A stretch of 32,000 nt of DNA from Candidatus Saccharimonadota bacterium. Its GTDB lineage: Bacteria > Pseudomonadota > Gammaproteobacteria > Enterobacterales > Enterobacteriaceae. The DNA lies in the NCBI GenBank assembly GCA_000217635.1, contig CP001817.1:390001-422000 (forward strand). The letters are read 5' to 3'. The position numbers and the translations under genes are program-made. Shown in pieces: positions 13,525 through 32,000 of the stretch. Each line of letters opens with the position of its first letter. Within the stretch, counting starts at the first letter, position 1. The notes beneath the pieces are model-generated. The model was not told where the DNA came from, did not search any database, and saw only the letters and a program-made list of their open reading frames with translations.

Positions 13525-13997
13525 ACTAAATATTTAGAACCTTTAGTGTATTATCTTATAAAAATTATTTTTATATAATAAATATTATTTATTAGATTCT
13601 AAAACAAAATAAAAAGACATTACCAAATATTAAAAAATAATTTATATCAAAAAATTATATATATTAAAATATATTATTCTATATATTTATAAAATTCACA
13701 AAAATTTAAAAATAAAAATTAAAAAAAATATTATTATTTTTATTAATTGCAATATATAAAATTATATTTAGATTAATATTTAATAATTTATTTAATTTAT
13801 TTTTTTAATAATAAAATATATTTTCTTAATATATCATGGATATATAAAAAAACCAAATAAACCATAAAAATATATAATCAAATCAAATCTTATAATAAAA
13901 TTTTAAAATATATTTATATTATTATATTAATGATTATTAAGACACTCATTGTTAATAAAATAATTTAAAAAATATTTTAAAGTTAATTTTAAATTTT

Positions 13998-15010
13998 TTA
14001 TGAATTTAAAATATTTTGCACAATATACAAAGTTTTTTTACTATATTTCCGTGCATTTTCCGCTCCATTTTTTAATATTTCATGTAAATAATAAATATCT
14101 TTGCGAAAAATAAAATAAGACTTTTGAATTTTTAATATTACTTCTATTAAAATATCTAATAAATATTTTTTAAAATTTTGATATGTATATCTTTCAAATT
14201 CTAATTCTAACTTAGAAATTTTTTTACCTGTTAACGAAGATAATATCATCAATAAATTTGAAATACCCGGCTTATTATCTTTATCATATATAACTTGCGG
14301 AGGATTATTAGAATCAGTTAATGCTTTTTGTAATTTCATACGTATTAATTTTATATCATCTAATAAAAATATCGAATTGTTCAAATTAATATCTGACTTA
14401 GACATTTTTTTTATAGGATTTTGTAATGCCATAATTTTATAACCAATATTGTTCAAAATAATAGAAGGAATTGTAAAAATATCTCCATATTTCTTATTAA
14501 AACGATGCGCAATACTTTGAACTAATTCTAAATGTTGTTTTTGATCTAATCCAACAGGTACAAAATTTGTTTGATATAATAAAATATCAGCTGCCATTAA
14601 TACGGGATAACTAAATAAAGAAAGGTTAATAGGAATATTTTTATTAAGATTAACTTTATATTTAAACTGAGTCATTCTAGATAATTCACCAAAATAACTA
14701 AAATTACTTAATATCCAATATAATTGCGTATGCTCCAAAACATGAGACTGTAAAAAAACAGTGCTTTTATTAGGATCTACTCCACAAGATAAAAATAACG
14801 CTAAGGTATCTAAAATTCTATTATTTAAAGATTCTTGAATTTGATTTGGAAAAACAGTTAAAGCATGTAAGTCAGATATACAAAAAAAAAACATAAGTAT
14901 TTTTTTTGAAATTCTGCCCAACAATTTATTGTTCCGCAATAATTACCGATTGTTAATAAACCAGATGGCTGAATACCTGTAAATAAAATATCTTTAGAAA
15001 TTTTTTGCAC
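13998..15010 (-). pseudogene. trpS: Tryptophan--tRNA ligase, split by a frameshift in a T10 run (mRNA U10)
   Basis: The ORF 13998..14939 matches E. coli TrpRS from CIVDQHAITV onward (here CISDLHALTV) and includes KMSKS. The missing N-terminus (GTG at 15010: QKISKDILFTGIQPSGLLTIGNYCGTINCWAEFQKKYLCFFF) is in another frame and joins at 14882..14891. Confidence 0.9.
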
Positions 15011-15085
15011 ATTCTAACTACCTTATCAGTATTAAAAACAATATCGCTATTATTTAATATAATATATTAATATTCTTTAATAATA

Positions 15086-17567: not shown

Positions 17568-17835
17568 GAAAAATAGAGAATAATATATTTTTTAAAAACA
17601 AAAATTTATTTTATAAATAAAAATTTTTGTTATAAACAATATTATATATTGAAAATAAAAGAAATTATATGTTTAATATAAAAAATTATGAATTAATATG
17701 ATATTTTTCCATTAAAAAATATTTCAATATATATATAAAAAATATATCAAATATACATATTATAATATATAATAAAAAAAATAATTTTATTATATAATAA
17801 AAAATATAGGATTTTTAATATATAGAAAAAGAATT

Positions 17836-17922
17836 GGTGAGATGTCTGAGAGGCTGAAAGAACATGTTTGGAAAACATGTATATGGTAAAACGTATCAAG
17901 GGTTCGAATCCCTTTCTCGCCA
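17836..17922 (+). tRNA. tRNA-Ser (anticodon GGA)
   Basis: The acceptor GGTGAGA pairs with TCTCGCC. The anticodon stem is CATGT/ACATG with loop TTGGAAA, giving GGA. It has a long variable arm and a GGTTCGAATCC T-arm. No CCA is encoded. Confidence 0.9.
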
Positions 17923-17986
17923 TTTAAAAAAACATTAAAAAAATAATTCTTAAAATTTATTAAATAATCAAAAATTTAAAAAAATC

Positions 17987-20434: not shown

Positions 20435-21415
20435 ATGTATAAAAAAAAATATTCAAATAAATTTTCTGTTGCTCCTATGTTAAATTATACTGATCAATAT
20501 TGTAGATATTTTTATAGACAATTAACAAAAAAAACATTATTGTATACAGAAATGATCACTTCCCAAGAATTATTATATAAAAATCCTGATAATTATATAA
20601 GATATACCTCAAATAATCAAAATCCTATTGCTATCCAACTTGCCGGAAATAATATTAATGAATTAACAAAATGTGCAATGATAGCATATTCATTAGGATT
20701 TAATGAAATTAATTTAAATGCTGGATGTCCATCTAAAAAAGCTCAATTAGGCGGTTTTGGCGCTTGTTTAATGCTTAATCCTATATTACTTTTTAATATT
20801 ATTCGCGCTATTTATAATACCGTACCTATCCCAATCAGCATTAAAATACGCCTTGGCACACATAACAAAAACAATTATCAACATTTATATAACTTTATTA
20901 AATTAGTTTCTAAAAAAAATTATTGTAAACGTTTTATTATACATGCACGTATTGCTAATTTAAATGGCTTAAATACAAAAAAAAATCGTTGTATCCCTCC
21001 TTTGAATTATAAATATGTTTATAAAATAAAAAAAGATTTCCCGAATTTAAAAATTATCTTAAATGGCGGAATTCAAAATCTTCAAGAAGCTCAAAAACAT
21101 TTAAAGATAATAGACGGAGTAATGTTAGGTCGAGCTATATATAAAAATCCCTTAATGTTGTGCGCTGTAGATCAAAAAATTTTTTCAGTTCATTCTATAA
21201 TTAATAAAAAAATATTATTAGATAATATGCAAAAATATATTCACTATCATTCATTAAAAAATATTCCGATAATATATATTTTTCGCCACATGTTAAATAT
21301 TTTTTATGGCAAACCTCAATCAAAAAAACTAAAACAATATTTTATACATAAAATAAAAAATTATACTGATATAACAATTTTATTTCAAAAATTATCAAAA
21401 AAATTTAATTTTTAA
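20435..21415 (+). CDS. dusA: tRNA-dihydrouridine synthase A
   Basis: 326 aa. FSVAPMLNYTDQYCRYFYRQLTKKTLLYTEM... and ...NLNAGCPSKKAQLGGFGACLM match E. coli DusA. Confidence 0.9.
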   Translation: MYKKKYSNKFSVAPMLNYTDQYCRYFYRQLTKKTLLYTEMITSQELLYKNPDNYIRYTSNNQNPIAIQLAGNNINELTKCAMIAYSLGFNEINLNAGCPSKKAQLGGFGACLMLNPILLFNIIRAIYNTVPIPISIKIRLGTHNKNNYQHLYNFIKLVSKKNYCKRFIIHARIANLNGLNTKKNRCIPPLNYKYVYKIKKDFPNLKIILNGGIQNLQEAQKHLKIIDGVMLGRAIYKNPLMLCAVDQKIFSVHSIINKKILLDNMQKYIHYHSLKNIPIIYIFRHMLNIFYGKPQSKKLKQYFIHKIKNYTDITILFQKLSKKFNF

Positions 21416-23083: not shown

Positions 23084-23498
23084 ATGTTAATTATAGCCTT
23101 TGATTACGGGATAAAAAACATTGGCATAGCAATTTCTGAAACAAAGTTATTATACGCACAGCCTATTTGTACAATTAAAAATAAAAATTGGCTTGAAATA
23201 GATAAAATTATTAAAATTTGGTTACCATTGTTAATAATTGTTGGATATCCAATAGACATGAATGGAAAAAAACAAAAAATTACAAAAAAAAAGTTGATAA
23301 ATTTTGTAATCAACTAAAAAAAGATATAGTATTCCAATTATTATACATGATGAACGACTTACTACAATTGAAGCTAAATCAGTTATCTTTCAAAAAGGTG
23401 GGTATAAAGCTTTAGAAAAAACATGTATTCATTCAACTGCAGCAAAAATTATTTTAGAAAGTTGGTTAAAAACTCAATATAAAAAAACAATTAAATAA
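23084..23498 (+). pseudogene. ruvX: Holliday-junction resolvase-like nuclease RuvX (YqgF), two frameshifts in A runs
   Basis: Three consecutive frames together spell an E. coli YqgF-like protein. They read MLIIAFDYGIKNIG...GYPIDMNGKKQKITKKK, then VDKFCNQLKK, then RYSIPIIIHDERLTTIEAKS...AAKIILESWL...*. The junctions are at A9 (23284..23292) and A7 (23316..23322). Adding one A to each gives 138 aa, the E. coli length. Confidence 0.85.
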
Positions 23499-23540: not shown

Positions 23541-23688
23541 ATATAATTAATATTATATTATTATAATGTAATATGTAAATGTTCCGGTACAATAACTAAC
23601 TTAACAATAAGTTATGTATCCCAACATAAAAAAATTTATAAAATATAAATATATTAATAAAATTTATATTTCATATATTAAAAAACCT

Positions 23689-24388
23689 TTATAATTTATA
23701 AATATATTCAAATATTATATTACCTAAATTGATTCCTCGTTTTTCATAATTTGTTTGATATGAGAAATATTTTTGATTACATTTTTTATGTATATTAATT
23801 CTTTTAAAAAAATTATATTTTAAAAAATTTTTTTATATGATAAGCATAAGAAAGACAATCTGTTTTAATATATATTATACCATTAGTCATTAATTTTTTA
23901 GATAATAACTTAATAAATACATCTGTTATTATTCTTCTTTTATGATGTTTTCGTTTAGGCCAAGGGTCAGGAAAAAAAATTTGTACCATAGTTAATATCT
24001 TGTTAGGAATCATATATAAAAAAACATCAATAGCATCATAATTTATAATTTTAATATTATTAATATTATATAAATTAGCATATTTTATATTAGATAATAT
24101 ACCAGGAAAATAAACTTCAATACCTAAAAAATTTATATTAGGATAATATTCGGCTTTTTTAACAAAATATTCTCGCGAACCAAAACCGATATCTACAATA
24201 ATAGGTTTATTATTTTCAAATATATCTTGTAAGGATATATAATTATTTGTATATGTAATTCCAAATTGCGCCCATAATTTCTGTATGATATTAGAGGAAT
24301 TTAAAAAATTTGTTTTTCTATATCTTAATACATAACTTTTTGTTTTATAATTAGTATGAAACAGTTGAAAATTAAAACAATCTTTCAT
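23689..24388 (-). pseudogene. trmB: tRNA (guanine46-N7)-methyltransferase TrmB, C-terminal 40-odd codons in another frame
   Basis: ...VDIGFG...FLGIEVY.PG... and ...MVQIFFPDPWPKRKHHKRRI... match TrmB. The ORF stops at 23813 (…YHIKKFFKI*). The adjacent frame continues NFLKYNFFKRINIHKKCNQKYFSYQTNYEKRGINLGNIIFEYIYKL*, against E. coli ...[20 protein letters not shown]. The start at 24388 follows AGGAAG, and an alternative ATG lies at 24394. Confidence 0.82.
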
Positions 24389-24463
24389 TATCATCTTCCT
24401 AAAATAATTAATTAAATTAATATAATCAATAATTATTTTTAAAAATATATAAGAGATATATTT

Positions 24464-25507
24464 ATGATTTTTTCGCAAAAAATTTTAAATTGGTATCACA
24501 ATAATGGACGTAAAAATCTTCCGTGGAAAAAAAATAATAATATATATTATATTTGGATTTCTGAAATTATGTTGCAAAGAACACAAGTTAAAAAAGTAAT
24601 TCCTTATTATATAAAATTTATAAAAAATTTTCCTACTATAAAAATATTATTAAAAAATCCAATTGAAAAAATATTATATTTTTGGAGTGGATTAGGATTT
24701 TATCAAAGGGTACATAATATATATAAAACTGCTCATATCATACAAAAAAAATATCAAGGAAATTTTCCTACTACGCTTCCGGAAATAAAAAATTTACCGG
24801 GCATTGGAAAAACTACAGCTCATGCTATTTTATCCTTTTCTAAAAATTATTGTTATCCAATATTAGATTCTAATATTAAACGTATATTATTACGATATTA
24901 TTTTTCTACTAAAAAAAAATTTTATTTTCTGAAAAAAAAACTATGGAATATAATTAATCAATTAATTCCCGTACATTATGCTGAAAAATTTAATCAAGGT
25001 ATGATGGATCTTGGTGCCTTGATTTGTCATTATAAAAATCCTGAATGTTTATTATGTCCATTAAAAAATCAATGTAACTATTATAAAACAAAACAATCAA
25101 ATATTGAAAAATTATTTATCAAAAAGTTTTCGAAAAAAAAAATTGGCATGACTTTTATAATATTAAACTATAAAAACTTTATTTTATTACAAAAACAAAA
25201 AACACAAAAATTTTGGAAATCTTTATTTTGTTTTCCGATTCATTACTTTTCTATTACAGATAATATATGGAAAAATATAAAAAATATAAAAAATAACGTA
25301 TTTAAAATTATACCTCCTTTTATTCATCACTTTAGTCATATAAAATTATATATAACTGTATGCTTAATACCAATTAAAAAAAACAAAATAAAAATAAATC
25401 TTCAAAAAAAAGATCTCTGGTATGATATATTTTGTCCTCCAAAAATTGGAATACCTTCACCGGTTTCTAAAATTATTACAATTATTAAACAATACGGAAA
25501 TAAAATT
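24464..25507 (+). CDS. mutY: Adenine DNA glycosylase MutY (no stop codon of its own; ORF continues into yggX)
   Basis: [11 protein letters not shown] (catalytic Glu), PILDSNIKR (Asp) and the 4Fe-4S ligands [17 protein letters not shown] are present. The C-terminal domain ...[10 protein letters not shown]...[16 protein letters not shown] matches MutY. The 406-aa ORF runs in frame into YggX at 25508. Confidence 0.88.
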
Positions 25508-25746
25508 ATGAAAAAAATAAAACCTCGCACTATTTTTTGTACATTTCTAAAAAAAGAAGCTTTAGGATTGGATTATCCATTTTATCCTGGCGAAATAGGA
25601 AATAAAATATATAATGAAATTTCTCAAGAAGCATGGCAACATTGGATAAAAAAACAAACAAAAATTATAAATGAAAAAAATTAAATATGTTTTTAGAAGA
25701 TGATAGAAAAAAACTAGAAAAAGAAATGATAAAATTTTTATTTTAA
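25508..25746 (+). pseudogene. yggX: Fe(2+)-trafficking protein YggX, frameshift in an A7 run
   Basis: [57 protein letters not shown] matches E. coli YggX. The frame ends at 25684. With A8 at 25674..25680 it continues [22 protein letters not shown], against E. coli [22 protein letters not shown]. Confidence 0.82.
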
Positions 25747-25784
25747 AAAAAATAAATAGATAGTTAAATGTTCATTTAAAATAT

Positions 25785-26069: not shown

Positions 26070-27505
26070 TTAACAAAAATTATTAATTTTATATATTAAT
26101 TTATCAACATACTTTATTAATTTCTTTAATAAATATAATTTTTTAAAATTGTCATAATATTTAATTTTTAAAAAATAAATTTTATTAAAATATTCTGTTA
26201 TTAATTTAGAATTTACTATATTTTGACAATGTTTTTTCCAAATTTTCTTTTCTAATAAATTTAAAGAATGAGGAAAATTTCTCGCCCGTAATCTAAAAAT
26301 AATTTTCTTTAAACGAACATCAAAAAAATCTATATTTTTAATTTTCCAAAATTCTGGAGAAGTTTTTATGTAATAAATTTAGTAATAATTTATCTTTATA
26401 ATTAAAAAAACTATCATATAACATTAAATCTATATTTTTCGATTTAGCTATTTTTAAATTATAATTATTTGAAAAAACAGAAATAACCCATTTTTTTATA
26501 GCATTATTATGAAAAAATAAAAAAAAATTTTTTTGATATTTCATATAATTTAGTTTAAGTCTCTGGCACGATTTTTCAGATAATGAATTATATTTAAAAA
26601 ACATAGGTGATTTATTTAAATAAATAACTTTCATTCCTAATAATAATAAATCATGTATTTTATAATTAATATTATTAGAGTTTTGATACAATGAAAAAAT
26701 ATCTTTAAAACTAGCATTTAAATCAAAAACTAAAAGTAGATTATTATTATTTGGATGATAACCAATAACCATGATACAACTAATATTTTTTTTTTTAGAA
26801 CCAAAAATATTAGATATATAAAAAAATGGTTTTTGATAATTTAAATTAATAAATTTTATTATGTTTTTTTTTTGAGAATTTTTATATAACTTAAAAAAAA
26901 AATTTTTATTTGTAAACATAATAACCTTGCCACTTCAATTGTTGCCAGAACATCCGACGAAGCATCATGAACATTAGCATGAGTAATATTATTTATTTTT
27001 GTAAAATCAGATAACTTAAAACTAACATAACCTTTAGAATTTTTAGGCCAAAAAATATTTTTTGGATAATAAATATAAAATGCTCTTAAAACATTTAACA
27101 TATCCCAAGTAGAATTTCCATTCTTCCAAGACCATTCATATGGATCAAAACAATTTCTATAAAATATATTACGTGTAATTAAATTATCAAATTTTAAATT
27201 ATTAAATCCAATAATACATGTATTTTTTTTCATAAAATATTATATATTTTTTTGAAAAAAATATTCATTAATACCTATTTTACATAAATCTTGGGGTAAT
27301 ATTTGAGTAATTAATATAGCATTAGGATTAGGTAAATAATCTAACGGAGGGATACAAAAAAATTTTTTTTATCAATTATATTAAAAGATAAATCTGTTCT
27401 AATGCTAGAAAATTGAGCGGGTTTATCTAAAGCTGTATCTGTTCCAAAAGTTTCATAATCATAAAATAAAAAACTTTTACATAATGTATTATATTTTTTA
27501 AACAT
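26070..27505 (-). pseudogene. sbcB: Exodeoxyribonuclease I (sbcB) pseudogene, full length but with 3 frameshifts and 1 in-frame stop
   Basis: Five collinear pieces cover essentially all of E. coli ExoI, which is 475 aa. (1) MFKKYNTLCKSFLFYDYETFGTDTALDKPAQFSSIRTD... (2) FFCIPPLDYLPNPNAILITQ... ending at the TAA at 27240..27242. (3) MKKNTCIIGFNNLKFDNLITRNIFYRNCFDPYEWSW...HDASSDVLATIEVARL. (4) FTNKNFFFKLY... to ...LHKNFSRILEN. (5) KNIDFFDVRLKKIIFRLRARNFP... ending at the stop at 26070. Confidence 0.88.
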
Positions 27506-27557
27506 ATAAATATAACTCTAAAAAATAATTATTTAAATAATAAAAATTTCATATAAA

Positions 27558-27630
27558 CTCCCCTGACTGGACTCGAACCAGTGACATACGGATTAACAGT
27601 CCGCCGTTCTACCAACTGAACTACAGAGGA
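27558..27630 (-). tRNA. tRNA-Asn (anticodon GTT)
   Basis: The reverse complement TCCTCTGTAGTTCAGTTGGTAGAACGGCGGACTGTTAATCCGTATGTCACTGGTTCGAGTCCAGTCAGGGGAG is nearly identical to E. coli tRNA-Asn. No CCA is encoded. Confidence 0.93.
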
Positions 27631-27825
27631 ATAATTTAAATTTATAACATAAAAATTTAAATAAATCAATTAAAAAAAAACAAGAAAAATGAATAATAAA
27701 AAATTTATATATTTTTCATAATCTTAAAAAAAATATTTATATATATTTATTTTTTTAATAAAAAATATAGATTACTAAAAAAATTTGTTTTATAATATAA
27801 ATATAATACTTTTAAAAAAATATTC

Positions 27826-27898
27826 GGCCCCTTAGCTCAGTGGTTAGAGCACACGACTCATAATCGTTTGGTCGCTGGTTCAAATCCAGCAGGGGCCA
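27826..27898 (+). tRNA. ileX: tRNA-Ile2 (genomic anticodon CAT, lysidine-dependent; not tRNA-Met)
   Basis: GGCCCCTTAGCTCAGTGGTTAGAGCACACGACTCATAATCGTTTGGTCGCTGGTTCAAATCCAGCAGGGGCCA differs at only a few positions from E. coli ileX as I recall it. It lacks the elongator-Met (GGCTACG...) and initiator (CGCGGGG...) acceptor stems. Confidence 0.8.
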
Positions 27899-27928: not shown

Positions 27929-28351
27929 TTAAAAAATAAAATTCACCTTAATATTTAAATATGAAATAAATACTAAGTGAGCAATTATTTCACCGGGATT
28001 TAAATAAAAATTTAACTTACCACGATTCCAAATAGATAACTTTAATTCACCTTCATATAATGTTTTTATATGTTCGATAAAATTTCCAAAAACAATATTT
28101 TTTGTATAACCTAATCCAGAACGAGGTAAAAGTAAGTATTGAATATCGCTAGGAACGATATCAAAACCTCGTAAAGAAATACCTGTTGATAATAATTTAG
28201 AACAATTAGGAGAAATACATAATATTTCTTTATTAAGACATGTTCGCAAATACAACCCAACAACTCCATGAATACGATGTAAAAATAAAGGGAATATTGA
28301 ATATCTATGAATATCCAAAATTTTTAAATTAATTATACTTTTTTTACACAT
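27929..28351 (-). CDS. dut: dUTPase homologue with degenerate catalytic motifs (possibly inactive)
   Basis: The 140-aa ORF is collinear with E. coli Dut (KILD..., LRTCLN, LLPRSGLG, SIWNRG, NPGE.IA). Motif I is VGLYL in place of AGLDL. Motif III is IKTLYEGE in place of IDSDYQGQ. Motif IV is EIIAH in place of ERIAQ. Motif V (RGEGGFGHSG) is absent. Confidence 0.75.
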   Translation of the reverse strand: MCKKSIINLKILDIHRYSIFPLFLHRIHGVVGLYLRTCLNKEILCISPNCSKLLSTGISLRGFDIVPSDIQYLLLPRSGLGYTKNIVFGNFIEHIKTLYEGELKLSIWNRGKLNFYLNPGEIIAHLVFISYLNIKVNFIF

Positions 28352-30906: not shown

Positions 30907-31684
30907 ATATATTTTATATCTTTATTTTTCTTTAAAAAAAATTTCATTTTCTTTAATATAATTAAAATTTTTATAATTAATATTACATACCAAATATATA
31001 ATACTAATATTGCAAATTAATATTTCAATGTTAATTTTTTTATTAATATAATTCAGTCATAAAAATATGATATATAAAATTTTTAATAAAAAATTAAATA
31101 TTATCATTTTAATTATCTTAAATTTTTTAAAATTAAAAACAAATAAAAAAATAATTCTATACATTATAAATATGTTTTTTATAAATAAGTATTTATAAAA
31201 ATAAATATATAATAATATTTTTATACAAAATAAAATTTATTAAAAATAAATCATTAATTTTGAATAAAAATATAACATATTATAAATCATGAATTAAAAT
31301 TTAACTATCTTAAAAAATATATTTTAATTTTATAATTTTTATAATACATCATGATTATATTAATAATAAAATATTTTTTTTAAAATAAACGTATAAAATT
31401 TAATAAATAATTGTTATTGATGTTATTATCTAATATAATAATTTTTTAAAAACTTTAAATAATAGTAACTTTTAAAAAAGTAATAATATTTCCTAATAAT
31501 TTAAAATATATATACATATATTTTATATATATTCTATAGTACATTTAACATTATCATTGATATAATCAATTAATTTAAAAAAATATTTTTTATTTTTTGA
31601 TAAAAAATTAATGTATAGTGATATATTATATATACAACACTATATAATATAAAAATAATTATTAAAATTAATATTGATAAAAAA

Positions 31685-32000
31685 ATGCATAAAAAAAAAC
31701 TTAATTTGGATTGATTTAGAAATGACAGGATTAAACCCTAAAATAGATCGAATTCTTGAAATCGCTTCCATTATTACTGACAAAAATTTAAATATTCTTG
31801 CAAAAGGTCCAAATATTCCGCTGTATCATAATAAAACTGTATTAAAAAATATGCACTCTTTAACTTACTCTATACATCAAAAGAATGGATTAATTAAAGA
31901 GATTAAAAAAAGCAAATATGTAGAAAAAGACGCAGAAAGAAAAACAATAAAATTTCTAAAAAAATGGGTAAAAATTTATACTTCTCCGATATGTGGAAAT
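31685..32000 (+). CDS. orn: Oligoribonuclease, 5' part (runs off the window); start uncertain
   Basis: NLIWIDLEMTGLNPKIDRILEIASIITDKNLNILAKGP... to ...SPICGN matches E. coli Orn. The ATG at 31685 is one nt out of frame across the A9 run 31691..31699. An in-frame TTG lies at 31674. Confidence 0.85.

Follow-up and report, generated by a model that had tools for sequence, protein, structure and literature searches.

The trpS gene of Buchnera aphidicola of Cinara tujafilina (BCt), which encodes tryptophanyl-tRNA synthetase (TrpRS), is broken in the deposited sequence at a run of ten T residues that leaves its two halves in different reading frames. We favour, with moderate confidence, the view that the length of this run was miscalled and that the gene is intact in vivo. 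The evidence comes from the anatomy of the locus, from the constraint on the gene, from the junction in related Buchnera, and from several other homopolymer frame breaks in the 32,000-nt window, the whole stretch of DNA that was analysed.

Reading frames and repaired products of trpS

The trpS gene lies on the minus strand, and its frame changes at the T10 run at 14882-14891, which is A10 on the plus strand and U10 in the mRNA and which is flanked in the sense direction as CAAAAAAAATACTTATG-T10-GTATATCTGAC. The run separates a HIGH-type TIGN motif upstream (14942-14953) from the KMSKS motif downstream (14394-14408). A split of the gene at this run, between its TIGN and KMSKS halves, had been described in the initial annotation and is confirmed by the sequence and its open reading frames, as is the GTG start codon at 15008-15010, just after an in-frame TAG at 15014-15016. 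An AAGG Shine-Dalgarno-like motif is found at 15021-15024, and in the alignment the genes of related Buchnera begin at a homologous GTG or TTG. The N-terminal segment of 42 codons (frame A, 14885-15010, minus strand) is the frame -2 to which residues 1-44 of the relatives are matched by tblastn. The N-terminal open reading frame reads MQKISKDILFTGIQPSGLLTIGNYCGTINCWAEFQKKYLCFFF and then runs into an out-of-frame tail, VYLTYML, that ends with a TAA at 14858-14860 (tail and stop together 14858-14881), so that the truncated product is predicted to end in ...YLCFFFVYLTYML. The C-terminal segment of 294 codons plus stop (frame B, 13998-14882, minus strand) is frame -1 in tblastn with the relatives' TrpRS, reads (M)FFFCISDLHALTV...KMSKS...NILNS and ends at 13998. 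Frame B is reached from frame A by the gain of one T or the loss of two, and a run of T11 or T8 is thus in frame. An A8 run (14900-14907, minus strand), conserved in all relatives, lies 8 nt upstream of the T10 run; one additional base there would also bring the halves into frame, but would change the conserved YLC to ILMF. The CDS deposited for this gene, AEH39926.1, which is also the best protein match of the repaired gene, is a protein of 298 aa that begins at an internal ATG (14892-14894, minus strand) and lacks TIGN. PF00579 is on record for this fragment, which we reject as a functional enzyme as it is without the TIGN ATP-binding motif.

Four loci of related Cinara-type Buchnera, with 73-81% amino-acid identity, were compared: these derive from Logan (public sequencing-run) assemblies, L002/L006 and L003/L007, and from ENA contigs, L004 and L005. 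An intact trpS of 336 aa is present in all four (L002, L003, L004, L005), and in all four the junction is TG-T8-G, encoding CFFC. TrpRS is likewise full-length in all other Buchnera matches. The frame break is therefore common to none of these relatives, as an "ancient frameshift" in the sense of Wernegreen 2010 would be, since L002-L005 all have T8 and an intact gene. Judged from this comparison of sequences, the BCt run is 2 nt longer than a putatively ancestral T8.

The protein obtained by shortening the run to T8 aligns with E. coli TrpRS (5v0i) over residues 4-331 (E 9e-105) without a gap at the junction, where ylcffcisdlha stands opposite yhciycivdqha, and with 6dfu (E 5e-107). This upholds the earlier statement that a run of eight gives exact E. 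coli spacing, and its companion, that a run of eleven adds one Phe, is also correct, with LCFFFCIS in place of LCFFCIS. The HIGH-type TIGN motif, KMSKS and full-length alignment to solved structures are all found in the repaired protein, which places it among class I TrpRS (PF00579). A tryptic peptide, YLCFFFCISDLHALTVFPNQIQESLNNR, is predicted from a product of U11, of T11 or of a -1 shift, and its T8 or U8 counterpart would read YLCFFCISDL.... In 116 TrpRS homologues neither the distance from GNY to DLHA nor the C-x-x-C spacing varies, and as such the CFFFC of a T11 or U11 product is non-canonical. AlphaFold2 predicts the same fold for both products, with a confidence at the junction of 94/88 for T8 and 81/76 for T11, a difference between models that is weak evidence and does not decide between the two.

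The window has the Buchnera gene order (S10/spc ribosomal operons, tuf, fusA, rpsG, rpsL, tusBCD, trpS, rpe, aroB, aroK) and is AT-rich, with 18-33% G+C. The spacer between tusD and trpS (13525-13997) is 473 nt long and without an open reading frame; it measures 470 nt in L002 and 183 nt in L003, and may be what is left of a lost gene. A scan for promoters and terminators gave nothing beyond shuffle expectation. No second trpS was found in the 32-kb window by tblastn with the relatives' TrpRS, in line with the earlier remark that this was the only one in view. The tRNA genes of the window are tRNA-Ser(GGA) at 17835-17923, tRNA-Asn(GUU) at 27557-27631 and tRNA-Met(CAU) at 27826-27898, and there is no tRNA-Trp gene among them.

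Constraint on trpS and other frame breaks in the window

Across the whole gene, dN/dS between BCt trpS and its relatives is 0.16-0.22, the same level as between the intact relatives themselves. The 42-codon N-terminal fragment gives 0.07-0.11 and the C-terminal segment 0.18-0.25. Besides the T10 shift there are no further lesions, whether stops or indels, in 336 codons, and there is no lineage-specific acceleration of BCt trpS: with L003 as outgroup, BCt TrpRS has 13 lineage-specific amino-acid changes, compared with 14 and 11 in the intact sisters. The C-terminal frame contains no internal stop despite 181 possible single-base changes that would create one. Neutrality of this segment along the entire BCt branch should have led to 15-27 substitutions that create a stop, and as none is seen any neutral period must be shorter than about 11-20% of the branch. 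These comparisons indicate that trpS is a live, selectively maintained gene, or was one until very recently. The features of a decaying pseudogene, namely extra stops or indels and relaxed constraint, are not found in BCt trpS, and the reading of trpS as an old pseudogene is excluded by its dN/dS, by the absence of a second lesion and by the bound on the neutral period. Purifying selection without decay also supports the earlier contention that the break calls for either a correction mechanism or a sequence error. To presume that TrpRS is indispensable to a reduced symbiont was in contrast too absolute, as Portiera BT-QVLC has lost trpS (PMC5322561).

Frame breaks were sought by tblastn of the relatives' proteins against the window, with the remainder inspected by hand. 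Beyond trpS there are five more homopolymer frameshift sites in four conserved genes (one each in rplX, mutY-yggX and trmB and two in ruvX), which with trpS makes six sites in five otherwise conserved genes, of about 38 genes. Exactly one added base repairs five of the six sites, trpS counted, and A7 runs account for three of the six. In rplX, encoding ribosomal protein L24 (1975-2253, minus strand), the break is at or near an A7 run at 2022-2028, beyond which the conserved C-terminus continues in the next frame; GenBank has an 82-aa L24 (AEH39906.1), whereas the protein repaired by +1 nt has 103 aa and aligns end to end (residues 1-103) with E. coli L24. The ruvX (yqgF) gene (23084-23497, plus strand) is spread over three frames by two breaks, at A9 (23284-23292) and A7 (23316-23322), each repaired by +1 nt. 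All three of its segments are 67-74% identical to the relatives, in which ruvX is intact (133 and 135 aa); at the first site BCt has A9 where relatives have A7 or A6, and at the second BCt is one base short. The mutY-yggX fusion (24464-25760, plus strand) breaks at A7 (25674-25680) with an early stop, ...INEKN*, and a repair of +1 nt brings back the YggX C-terminus and a length of 427 aa, as in L006. In trmB (23680-24478, minus strand) the break is in the 3' part, near 23822-23834, beside an A7+T6 stretch. Conservation continues in the other frame for the final ~45 residues (...YEKRGINLGNIIFEYIY), and the repair, unlike that of the other sites, is -1 or +2 nt.

Over the same 21 kb, three genes are frameshifted in BCt, compared with one and none in the sister Logan assemblies; the numbers are small, and this excess is suggestive of miscalling in BCt. 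The one sister case is dus of L006 (SRR21069242; L006:4393-4487), which is split into 240 + 53 aa at an A10 run and which is intact in BCt (20435-21415) and in L007. As this assembly is independent of the BCt record, it suggests that real homopolymer frameshifts occur in the clade. The window holds 11 A/T runs of at least 10 nt and 72 runs of at least 8 nt (71 of A or T and one C8), and runs of 10 or 11 are called in frame in tusB, tusC, tusD, nfuA and mutY. A T10 run as such is thus common in the window, and what is non-random is that the frame changes within a gene of high conservation. None of 14 other BCt A/T runs of at least 8 nt, in nine aligned genes, differs in length from the relatives.

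The exonuclease I gene sbcB (26338-27505, minus strand) is broken into no fewer than three pieces (54, 124 and 193 aa) with a truncated C-terminal domain and with A11, A10 and T10 runs within 26786-26902, and is probably a true pseudogene. The dut gene (27929-28351, minus strand) looks degenerate: its GSAGLDLRA motif has become HGVVGLYLRT, its C-terminal motif is missing, and the Pfam dUTPase match is limited to residues 44-137 (E 3.6e-10). About 1.1 kb upstream of miaA (30907-32000), with 17.6% G+C, contains no open reading frame of at least 80 aa. In E. coli and other Buchnera this position belongs to mutL, of which the region may be a remnant; if so, the lost mismatch-repair function would be relevant to the instability of homopolymers.

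Explanations of the frame break

If the run length was miscalled, the deposited T10 would be a homopolymer error in a pyrosequencing-era assembly, and the real chromosome would carry an in-frame run, most likely a T11 called one base short, giving LCFFFCIS, or less likely T8. Normal full-length TrpRS would then be translated with no special mechanism. We infer that the true length differs from 10 and that the BCt platform was 454: 454 FLX/Titanium was the platform on which C. tujafilina DNA was read in the depositing laboratory (PMC4122931), and the Serratia genome that this laboratory published in 2011 was 454-only, Sanger reads serving just to join contigs (PMC3213167). The 298-aa TrpRS and the 82-aa L24 were both deposited as ordinary CDSs, which implies that the runs apparently went unchecked by the depositors, and neither has a RefSeq WP accession, as neighbouring genes have. 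The several other homopolymer frameshifts in the same assembly also move the balance towards sequence error. Four or five very recent independent inactivations within 32 kb, each without later decay, are implausible in a genome as large as that of its sister (445 kb and 444 kb), and homopolymer miscalling in the assembly is the economical common cause. Against this, a T11 read as T10 also needs a real expansion of +3 from the T8 of the relatives, and the 14 other long A/T runs show no length change. A +2 overcall of a true T8 would be atypical for pyrosequencing. T11 breaks the C-x-x-C spacing and is modelled with lower local confidence, the in-frame runs of 10-11 nt in tusB, tusC, tusD, nfuA and mutY mean that any error was not systematic, and the A10 break in L006 dus appears to be real in a sister lineage. 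That sister break and the +2 relative to the relatives' T8, which is unlike a simple miscall, favour instead a real T10 with trpS rescued by transcriptional slippage, which we regard as the main rival, possible but the less likely of the two. With dA10 as template and rU10 as product, RNA polymerase would slip back and add one U, and a share of U11 mRNAs would then give full-length TrpRS (LCFFFCIS), with rare U8 mRNAs giving the canonical LCFFCIS. The T10 run is within the length range of efficient slippage, and continuing purifying selection without a second lesion is consistent with rescue; as in the genes of Tamas 2008, the indel is in an A/T run of at least about 9 nt in an otherwise intact, constrained gene. 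In Buchnera transcriptomes single-base insertions dominate at A/T runs and rise exponentially with length to 11 nt, while deletions are seldom tied to homopolymer runs (PMC5574713). At long poly(A) runs of Buchnera and Blochmannia 12-50% of transcripts are corrected (PMC5009743, citing Tamas 2008; PMC3017870), and in Blochmannia vafer poly(A)/poly(T) runs carry frameshifts in the essential dnaX, dnaG and pth (PMC3017870). Of the two repaired species that the initial annotation had named, U8 is the less likely, because slippage inserts single bases and deletions in runs are rare (PMC5574713). The presence of the frameshift in no relative, however, gives no sign of long-term maintenance by slippage, and the U11 product would break the invariant C-x-x-C spacing. 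Slippage at A7 would also be inefficient, because insertion frequency climbs exponentially with run length (PMC5574713), and the A7 shifts in rplX, ruvX and yggX are beyond plausible rescue and point to assembly error as a common cause. It is unlikely that all six frameshifts are real, with essential proteins dependent on genome-wide slippage, in transcription or translation, even at A7.

Other readings of a real T10 are each far less probable. That trpS is a very recent pseudogene, with charging of tRNA-Trp failing or supplied by the host or by Serratia symbiotica, we hold to be improbable, although tiny symbionts such as Portiera BT-QVLC can lose trpS (PMC5322561), C. tujafilina harbours a co-obligate Serratia whose genome measures 2.5 Mb (PMC4122931; PMC5702781), and other genes of the window are probably in true decay (sbcB, dut). 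BCt trpS has no second lesion and no rate acceleration, its dN/dS is as low as in intact relatives, its neutral period is bounded at about 11-20% of the branch, and all other Buchnera matches have full-length TrpRS. We know of no documented case in which Buchnera imports a synthetase. As the main route, a -1 ribosomal shift on U UUU UUU, in which tRNA-Phe would re-pair one base back so that UGU is the next codon and LCFFFCIS is made as from U11, is very improbable: the zero-frame UGU UUU UUU UUU G does hold a perfect X XXY YYZ heptamer with perfect re-pairing of tRNA-Phe, but the downstream 111 nt have an MFE of -3.9 kcal/mol against a shuffle mean of -9.6 (z = +2.3) and thus no stimulatory structure, no Shine-Dalgarno-like element lies upstream at a stimulatory distance, the relatives, being in frame, show no conservation of the site for recoding, and at such a run length RNA polymerase slippage is expected to dominate. 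Programmed -1 frameshifting of the dnaX type is rejected, as its stimulators are absent and the site is not conserved. Least credible is an enzyme assembled non-covalently from a 50-residue TIGN fragment and a 298-residue fragment. Fragments of class I synthetases have been put back together both in vitro and in vivo, and the ATG at 14892-14894, where the depositors' CDS begins, is exactly at the junction. This ATG however merely results from the frame A codons TTA TGT for Leu-Cys, its position is GTG in two of three relatives, no Shine-Dalgarno motif precedes it, and the break would interrupt one of the core beta-strands of the Rossmann fold (residues 39-44 in the AlphaFold2 models); no natural TrpRS is known to us to be split at this point. 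Some other explanation of the frame break is just as hard to credit. A miscalled run in an intact gene remains our preferred explanation. In the contig index there was no exact match to BCt rpe, tusD or the 298-aa TrpRS, and in protein clusters the BCt proteins are known from one 444,925-bp NCBI contig, with full-length T8 and T11 versions of TrpRS absent. The trpS junction pattern with run lengths of 6-14 had no match in JGI metagenomes, a scan of genome contigs gave only a distant Buchnera from Eriosoma, none of six candidates from a protein search with the N-terminal 103 residues passed an E-value cut-off of 1e-20, and our literature search found no paper on BCt trpS.

Known systems and significance

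Miscalling and slippage, the two leading explanations, are both well-known phenomena. False frameshifts from 454 sequencing of AT-rich genomes resemble trpS in their long homopolymer, their one-base fix and their acceptance as truncated open reading frames, but unlike a simple 454 miscall the one-base change in trpS does not restore the ancestral T8. The slippage genes of Tamas 2008 and Wernegreen 2010, both cited in PMC3017870 and PMC5009743, likewise belong to AT-rich obligate insect symbionts and share with trpS a single indel in an A/T run of 9 nt or more, an intact constrained gene and a +1 fix in RNA. The apparent trpS frameshift differs in that related lineages do not share it. The homopolymer-tract frameshifts of Blochmannia vafer, in dnaX, dnaG, pth and five more genes, are single indels and affect essential information-processing genes (Williams & Wernegreen 2010, PMC3017870); these frameshifted genes show no accelerated evolution and are treated as potentially functional (PMC3017870), and BCt trpS is similarly unaccelerated. 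The B. vafer genome was however sequenced with Illumina and read in a phylogenetic context (PMC3017870), whereas BCt trpS comes from one assembly, probably 454, with other suspicious shifts. We found no report of an aminoacyl-tRNA synthetase among the described slippage-rescued cases. With the programmed -1 site of E. coli dnaX, trpS shares the slippery U UUU UUU, without the hairpin, Shine-Dalgarno stimulator or conservation, and whereas a dnaX-type shift yields two useful products, only the shifted product of trpS could be active. Portiera BT-QVLC and BCt are alike as insect nutritional symbionts without an intact annotated trpS, but in Portiera the gene is gone (PMC5322561), while each half of the BCt gene is undamaged and evolves under purifying selection.

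If trpS and the other sites were miscalled, the public BCt record contains false truncations (AEH39926.1 for trpS, AEH39906.1 for rplX, and ruvX, trmB and mutY-yggX), and comparative work on genome erosion in Buchnera could mistake these for lost genes. If all six frameshifts were instead real, about one in eight genes, including those for TrpRS and L24, would carry one-base deficits, a reliance on polymerase infidelity far beyond that of any described symbiont. If only the T10 run of trpS is real, which is possible although we lean against it, trpS would be a further essential symbiont gene kept by RNA polymerase slippage and the first aminoacyl-tRNA synthetase found with a slippage-dependent supply, and the amount made of a core translation enzyme would be tied to the infidelity of transcription.
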